NCBI GenBank assembly: GCA_000004985.1
Contig: GG738869.1
Source: Naegleria gruberi
Lineage: Eukaryota
DNA length: 64,000 nt
Direction: 5' to 3' (one strand)
Shown here: positions 4,065 through 4,694 of the stretch, in pieces
How positions within the stretch are numbered: position 1 is the stretch's first letter
Layout: each line of letters starts with the position of its first letter
Notes under the pieces: model-generated
What the model saw: only the letters and a program-made list of their open reading frames with translations
Databases searched by the model: none
What the model was told of the DNA's origin: nothing
Program-made: the position numbers and the translations under genes

Positions 4065-4694
4065 TTATTGGTCACCACCATCTTCACCTTCTTCACCATC
4101 ACCTTCTTGGGATTCAGTACCAACTTCTTCGTAGTCCTTTTCAAGGGCAGCCAAATCTTCTCTGGCTTCAGAGAATTCACCTTCTTCCATACCTTCACCG
4201 ACATACCAATGGACGAAAGCTCTCTTGGCATACATCAAGTCGAACTTGTGGTCAATTCTGGAGAAGACTTCAGCAATGGCAGTAGAGTTGGAAATCATAC
4301 AGACAGCTCTTTGAACCTTAGCCAAGTCACCACCTGGAACGACAGTTGGTGGTTGGTAATTGATACCACACTTGAAACCAGTTGGAGACCAGTCAACGAA
4401 TTGGATAGTTCTCTTAGTCTTAATAGTTGCAACAGCAGCATTGACGTCCTTTGGAACGACATCACCTCTGTACATCAAACAACAAGCCATGTATTTACCG
4501 TGTCTTGGATCACACTTAGCCATCATTGAGGCTGGTTCGAAAGCAGAGTTGGTAATTTCAGCAACAGACAATTGTTCGTGATAAGCCTTTTCAGCAGAAA
4601 TAACTGGAGCATAAGAACACAACATAAAGTGATTCTTGGATATGGGACCAAGTTAGTTTGGATTCAGTAACGTCGACGTTCAAAGCAGGATCCT
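4065..4694 (-). CDS. Alpha-tubulin, C-terminal portion (roughly residues 245 to the end). The 5' part is lost in the 59-kb N run. Stop TAA at 4065-4067.
   Basis: The minus-strand translation reads ...ALNVDVTE(F)[10 protein letters not shown](H)[187 protein letters not shown]. From memory, more than 90% of positions match canonical alpha-tubulins. Codon usage is that of a highly expressed gene (GGT, CCA, TTG, AGA, AAG, TCT, GCT, GTC, TTC, TAC). The supplied ORF 4065-4625 is this gene cut off at the first internal Met. Homology continues to 4686 once two apparent 1-nt deletions (near 4631 and 4662) are allowed for. Confidence 0.95.

Follow-up and report, generated by a model that had tools for sequence, protein, structure and literature searches.

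The region at positions 4065-4694 of the window (the whole stretch of DNA analysed, 64,000 nucleotides long) raises the question of whether it encodes an unusual alpha-tubulin. An earlier, sequence-only reading had recognized alpha-tubulin here, with several departures from residues taken to be nearly invariant and with an acidic tail that lacks a terminal aromatic residue, and had proposed that these were either a taxon-specific feature useful for placing the organism or the mark of a divergent paralogue. In what follows, sequence identities and residue distributions were computed by us, and expression, copy number and antibody results are taken from the literature.

Little of the window is real sequence. 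Only 3478 of its 64,000 bases are determined (1-657, 708-2291 and 3458-4694), and 94.6% consists of N, in runs at 658-707 (50 nt), 2292-3457 (1166 nt) and 4695-64000 (59,306 nt). The scaffold may really be about 4.7 kb long and padded, or a very large stretch of it may have been masked.

Location and identity of the coding fragment

Read on the minus strand, 4065-4694 codes for the last 209 residues of an alpha-tubulin, in a fragment that is cut by the contig end; codons 1-244 would fall past 4694, inside the N gap. The translation matches the Pfam family Tubulin_C (PF03953), covering positions 1-125 of the 126-position profile (E 4.7e-52; 175.9 bits, with the cut-off at 26.6), and all 60 of the 60 PDB matches listed are alpha chains, the top one (E 2.9e-131) being aligned to residues 245-448. 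By sequence similarity the fragment is thus assigned to alpha-tubulin, as had been proposed, being closest to alpha and not to beta, gamma or other tubulins.

The gene ends with a TAA stop codon at 4065-4067, preceded by GGT GGT GAC CAA (GGDQ), and the published N. gruberi protein 56236 has the same end. All motifs and the tail sequence quoted in the sequence-only reading are present in the minus-strand translation upstream of this stop. The alpha-tubulin frame that carries His266 to Gln453 is unbroken over 4068-4652 (to 4065 with the stop), and from HFMLCSY to the end it is identical to N. gruberi 56236. The listed open reading frame of 186 aa (4065-4625, minus strand) starts within it, at the Met of MLCSY (codon 4623-4625); an exact look-up of this 186-aa frame returned no record. 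The most upstream part of the fragment (4653-4694, minus strand), which includes FQTN, is out of frame with the remainder and terminates at the contig end with the bases GGATCCT. An open reading frame of 171 aa on the plus strand (4014-4529) was rejected as a gene, as it is merely the reverse strand of the tubulin gene.

The fragment shows a strong codon bias (GGT 16/16, GAA 19/19, AGA 7/7, CCA 8/9, AAG 11/12), as expected for a gene that is expressed in a burst. Between the tubulin gene and a convergent gene for a Zn-cluster protein lies an AT-rich spacer of 210 nt (3855-4064; 21.9% GC), with both 3' untranslated regions inside it.

Match to the Naegleria flagellar alpha-tubulin

We used as a reference the N. 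gruberi flagellate alpha-tubulin JGI Naegr1 56236, from Data S5 of Velle et al. 2022 (PMC9036621). Once two frame corrections are made, the repaired fragment is identical to residues 245-453 of this protein at 208 of 209 positions, the whole tail included, and the sole difference is Pro in place of Gly246. N. fowleri g3292 and A. kona 12591 each agree with the fragment at 202 of 209 positions, differing at six tail positions and at Gly246. The C-terminal tail (4068-4124, minus strand), which comprises 19 residues, ends in Gln and has no terminal Tyr or Phe, is identical to residues 435-453 of N. gruberi 56236. As the tail is the fast-evolving part of alpha-tubulin, exact agreement there indicates a source in N. 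gruberi or a very close relative. When the full fragment was searched against 5.8 billion proteins clustered at 90%, it matched generic alpha-tubulins at 96-97% identity, with species hidden by the clustering.

We hold with high confidence that the region represents the 3' half (codons 245-453 plus the stop) of one flagellar alpha-tubulin gene copy from N. gruberi or a very close relative, and that the contig ends within a multi-copy family; the assignment to N. gruberi rests on protein identity in one conserved gene together with its hypervariable tail. Assemblies typically break within near-identical multi-copy genes.

Frameshifts and a proline codon beside the contig end

The upstream part of the fragment can be read only with two 1-base frame corrections, the stretch up to HFMLCSY being spread over all three frames. 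Our predecessor had treated the fragment as a 210-aa translation in one frame, which does not hold, as the unbroken frame covers only 4065-4652; the string PRIHF, as it was read, spans a frameshift at 4631/4632 that had gone unflagged. Both frameshifts, and a change of Gly246 to Pro, had been missed.

We placed the two deletions by alignment to a related intact coding sequence in a chimeric Logan contig, L001 (described below). The first lies at 4631/4632 (minus strand), where the window has AGAAT-CAC against AGAATCCA in L001, a CC run being read as C. The second lies at 4662/4663 (minus strand), where the window has GAA-TCC against GAATTCC in L001, a TT run being read as T. Codon 246, the second residue of the fragment, is CCT (Pro) instead of GGT; Gly occupies this position in 114 of 115 relatives and in N. 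gruberi 56236.

Two explanations of these lesions have to be weighed. One is that the copy is a frameshifted pseudogene, that is, one of the approximately eight flagellar alpha-tubulin copies, recently inactivated by the two deletions and the Gly246-to-Pro change. Two frame disruptions and a substitution at a near-invariant Gly do occur in the window, and in a multi-copy family (PMC2115128) one lost copy would be tolerable. Against this, all three lesions are confined to the 70 nt at the contig end, with none in the other 560 nt, a clustering that has a chance of approximately 0.0014 if anomalies are randomly scattered over 630 nt. The other 188 codons show zero amino-acid differences from the functional protein. 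Both indels are contractions of two-base runs, and homopolymer contractions are typical of base-calling errors. The terminal GGATCCT also seems to resemble a cloning-site remnant, and we regard a pseudogene as improbable.

Since the anomalies all lie near the contig end, the indels are two-base-run contractions and the remaining codons are intact, we infer that the two frameshifts and the Gly246-to-Pro change are very likely sequence errors, introduced by base calling or by untrimmed vector at a low-coverage contig end. The third contig of the window starts with GATC (3458-3461) and ends with GGATCCT (4688-4694); both ends may stem from a cloning junction or an untrimmed polylinker, a possible cause of the Pro246 codon. 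Probable errors of this kind at the 5' end of the fragment would break an automatic gene model.

Core residues among alpha-tubulins

We aligned the repaired fragment with the best 119 alpha-tubulins from a search of 5.8 billion proteins and counted the residues in every column. Within the HFMLCSY motif (4611-4631, minus strand), Met is found in 81 and Ser in 101 of these best 119 relatives, and Cys270 (4617-4619) in 7. The Met and Ser of this motif are common non-animal states, and MLCSY is common to N. fowleri g3292 and A. kona 12591. In a second flagged motif, of 15 residues (4506-4550, minus strand), each residue is the commonest in its column among the best 119 relatives; the motif is identical in PDB 7miz, and one or two positions differ in PDB 6u42 and 9r4x. 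The third, a 12-residue motif with WSPTG and FKCG (4356-4391, minus strand), has the FKCG Cys in common with 97 of the best 119, and Ser347 (4386-4388) with 14. This motif is present in all heterolobosean flagellate alpha-tubulins of Data S5 (PMC9036621), and its WSP is found in the mitotic ones too.

The only rare states in the fragment are Cys270, Ser347 and Pro246, and both Cys270 and Ser347 are shared across heteroloboseans. Of the residues described as non-canonical, only Cys270 and Ser347 are minority states, and the others (M, S, S, A, S, M, A and C) are majority states. Near-invariance elsewhere cannot be maintained: most of the flagged residues are the majority state among the best 119 relatives, and the consensus used for comparison (PRIHFPLATY, NACFEPANQMVKCDP and FKVGINY) is animal sequence, as seen in the human, pig, cow, mouse and fly entries of Data S5. 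Residues regarded as "invariant" on the basis of animal tubulins vary across eukaryotes. The core of the predicted protein is that of an ordinary, slowly evolving non-animal alpha-tubulin.

This bears on the proposal that the fragment belongs to a divergent paralogue of alpha-tubulin, specialised in function and changed in its tail. Its tail is indeed Gly/Asp-rich and without Tyr or Phe, and truly divergent mitotic alpha-tubulins exist in Naegleria (PMC9036621). However, the fragment is approximately 92% identical to Chlamydomonas alpha-tubulin (189/205) and departs from PDB 7miz at no more than a few positions in the core. The isoform with which it is identical is the flagellate one, not the mitotic ones (...SSLAPM..., ending ...MLDEGE...), and most of the tubulin present in flagellates is of the flagellate type (PMC9036621). 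The fragment corresponds to the main flagellar alpha-tubulin, with approximately eight near-identical copies (PMC2115128, PMC9081340), which leaves a divergent paralogue with hardly any probability.

The C-terminal tail

The translation ends ...GGDQ, and the absence of a terminal Tyr or Phe, noted earlier, is real. The 17 residues that follow VG comprise E5 G5 D3 Q2 T1 S1, and the encoded C-terminal -EY or -EF is absent, the tail ending in -DQ. Tails without terminal Tyr or Phe occur in approximately 12% (14/119) of the best-matching relatives, some of these being truncated models. The Tyr-less, Gln-ending tail is a published hallmark of the Naegleria (heterolobosean) flagellar alpha-tubulin, already known since 1988. 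Since the alignment shows both the substitutions and the C-terminus to be standard for a studied clade, they do not constitute an anomaly. The suggestion of a taxon-specific feature useful for placement was sound: the tail and the Cys270/Ser347 pair are heterolobosean, specifically of N. gruberi, and they mark the 95%-N window as N. gruberi or a very close relative, the value of this being mainly for annotation.

A search with the tail only recovered one exact tail, in L001 (Logan contig ERR13714883_30487 of run ERR13714883; 903 nt, chimeric). A degenerate DNA pattern for the tail had no matches in JGI metagenome contigs, and full-text literature search gave no match to the peptide strings of the fragment or to the accession of the run; the matching protein sits in a supplementary FASTA file.

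From position 1 to approximately 700, L001 carries a different alpha-tubulin (MLSSYSPIIS, ACSMMYRGD, FKVGINY) with approximately 85% nucleotide identity to the window. From approximately 700 to 838 it is 97-98% identical to the tail region of the window, and 835-903 is an inverted copy of window positions 4253-4321. A close Naegleria relative, together with another eukaryote or a paralogue, is probably present in the sample. An intron-containing alpha-tubulin gene with 81% nucleotide identity to the window is found at 85-1759 of a JGI contig (3300051389, Ga0503152_0050205). Its tail is Gly/Asp-rich and without a terminal aromatic residue (...GSESGDGGDEEEGDM), and it shares a 10-residue stretch with the window. 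The contigs with P0050 and P0016 also encode Tyr-less tails but have only 77-81% nucleotide identity to the window, and were assigned to other organisms.

Neighboring genes

The sequence at 1-657 (minus strand) is one open frame throughout, of 219 codons, with 14.6% GC and a GC3 of 5.5%. It encodes a fragment of a Y-family DNA polymerase (PF00817, E 8.4e-10) and is far more AT-rich than its neighbors, GC3 being 26-30% in the Zn-cluster gene and 36% in the tubulin gene. Among 1.84 billion cluster representatives, its best match is Naegleria lovaniensis XP_044551679 (E 8.5e-29), with which it shares an uninterrupted 21-residue identity, CPNLKLIHVPMFPNTTKVTYK. Identity to the N. lovaniensis protein is 43% over the best-scoring stretch and 31% in pairwise BLASTP, and the next named matches are animal DNA polymerase eta, at approximately 1e-11. 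As the polymerase fragment is closest to Naegleria, it gives independent taxonomic support for a heterolobosean neighborhood. No near-identical N. gruberi protein was found for it among the 1.84 billion representatives, suggesting either that the polymerase gene is unannotated in N. gruberi or that the DNA comes from another member of the N. gruberi group.

On the plus strand at 1755-3854, interrupted by the N gap at 2292-3457, lies a gene, convergent with that for tubulin, whose product is rich in Asn and Gln. The N-terminal part of this protein contains a "fungal" Zn(2)-Cys(6) binuclear cluster domain (PF00172, scoring 29.3 bits where the cut-off is 21), although the genome is evidently heterolobosean. 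When 5.8 billion proteins were searched by word index, no homologue of its C-terminal 131 aa was detected.

This adjoining domain, together with the very AT-rich spacers, the Asn-rich low-complexity regions and the slow evolution of the tubulin, could be taken to indicate an AT-rich flagellated fungus, either a chytrid or an anaerobic gut fungus. The tail is exactly that of N. gruberi, however, the polymerase fragment is closest to Naegleria, and the tail turned up in no fungal sequence among 5.8 billion proteins, so that a fungal source is extremely unlikely. A dictyostelid source, suggested by the Zn2Cys6 domain in combination with AT-richness and runs of Asn, was ruled out by the Naegleria matches of polymerase and tubulin.

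Published biology and proposed role

The flagellar alpha-tubulin genes of Naegleria were cloned by Lai, Remillard and Fulton in 1988 and exist in approximately eight exceptionally similar copies (PMC2115128; copy number also in PMC9081340). One genomic copy has no introns, and the encoded protein is the same in three sequenced genes; its Tyr-less tail, ending in Gln and longer than usual, was reported in the same work (PMC2115128). A check for a second alpha-tubulin gene, which had been proposed, is answered by the literature, which lists for Naegleria, in addition, 53284 as well as two mitotic and several divergent alpha-tubulin genes (PMC9081340). The EY motif is missing from flagellate and mitotic alpha-tubulins (PMC9036621), and it is the beta-tubulin of Naegleria that has an encoded C-terminal Tyr (Lai et al. 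1994, in the 2022 review by Fulton, PMC9081340). Flagellar tubulin is made de novo at the amoeba-to-flagellate differentiation, for axonemal and cytoplasmic microtubules (PMC2115128; PMC9036621).

If the assignment is correct, the gene to which the fragment belongs would encode the alpha subunit of the tubulin that is synthesised de novo when amoebae become flagellates, and this tubulin would form the axonemal and cytoplasmic microtubules of the flagellates. [quoted passage not shown] Exclusion from the cycle, predicted earlier, agrees both with the -DQ end and with the negative YL1/2 staining of Naegleria (PMC9036621). The further prediction of altered modification has been tested in part: in Naegleria flagellates acetylated tubulin was stained, and tyrosinated (YL1/2) and polyglutamylated tubulin were not (PMC9036621, text and Figure S3 legend). 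The length and net charge of Naegleria tubulin tails are similar to those of commonly studied tubulins (PMC9036621). The literature searched gave nothing specific on Naegleria TTL or TTLL genes, and vasohibin and MATCAP are likewise unmentioned in the Naegleria tubulin papers cited.

A wider reading would be that heteroloboseans have shifted the terminal aromatic residue from alpha- to beta-tubulin; the beta tail would then be the target of CAP-Gly proteins, and possibly of a tyrosination cycle, and the Gln-ending alpha tail would be inert. We consider this a doubtful, tentative possibility, with which the window is compatible and to which it adds nothing. The idea of an alpha-to-beta transfer of Tyr had been put forward before, by Lai et al. 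1994, Fulton 2022 (PMC9081340) and Velle et al. 2022 (PMC9036621). The locus has little discovery value, as the Gln-ending alpha-tubulin and its consequences have already been discussed and partly tested.

Comparison with known alpha-tubulins

The closest known system is the N. gruberi flagellar alpha-tubulin (PMC2115128; 56236), with which the fragment shares the tail, the terminal Gln, the lack of introns in the shared part and membership of a multi-copy family. They differ in that 56236 has Gly246 and no frameshifts, whereas the window copy is without codons 1-244. N. fowleri g3292 and A. kona 12591 have a core (245-434) identical to that of the fragment apart from Gly246, and Gly/Asp/Glu-rich tails without a terminal aromatic residue, but these tails end in ...GAEDQ and ...GNDQE, respectively, compared with ...GGDQ in the window.

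At a greater distance, Chlamydomonas reinhardtii alpha-1 and PDB 7miz, 6u42 and 9r4x resemble the fragment in having PRIHFML-SY, FEPA-MM-KCDP and FKCGINY or near variants of these, with 6u42, 9r4x and Chlamydomonas alpha-1 differing from 7miz at one or two positions in the flagged motifs. Unlike the fragment, Chlamydomonas alpha-1 and the best PDB chains carry Ser270 and Cys347, and Chlamydomonas alpha-1 ends in ...EEY. A Tyr-less alpha-tubulin end is likewise encoded by the gene for the testis-specific isotype of chicken (Pratt et al. 1987, cited in PMC9081340 and PMC2115128). The Tyr-less alpha isotypes of animals, however, are minor and divergent and occur beside Tyr-ending ones, whereas in Naegleria all of the alpha-tubulins shown are without Tyr and it is beta-tubulin that carries it.
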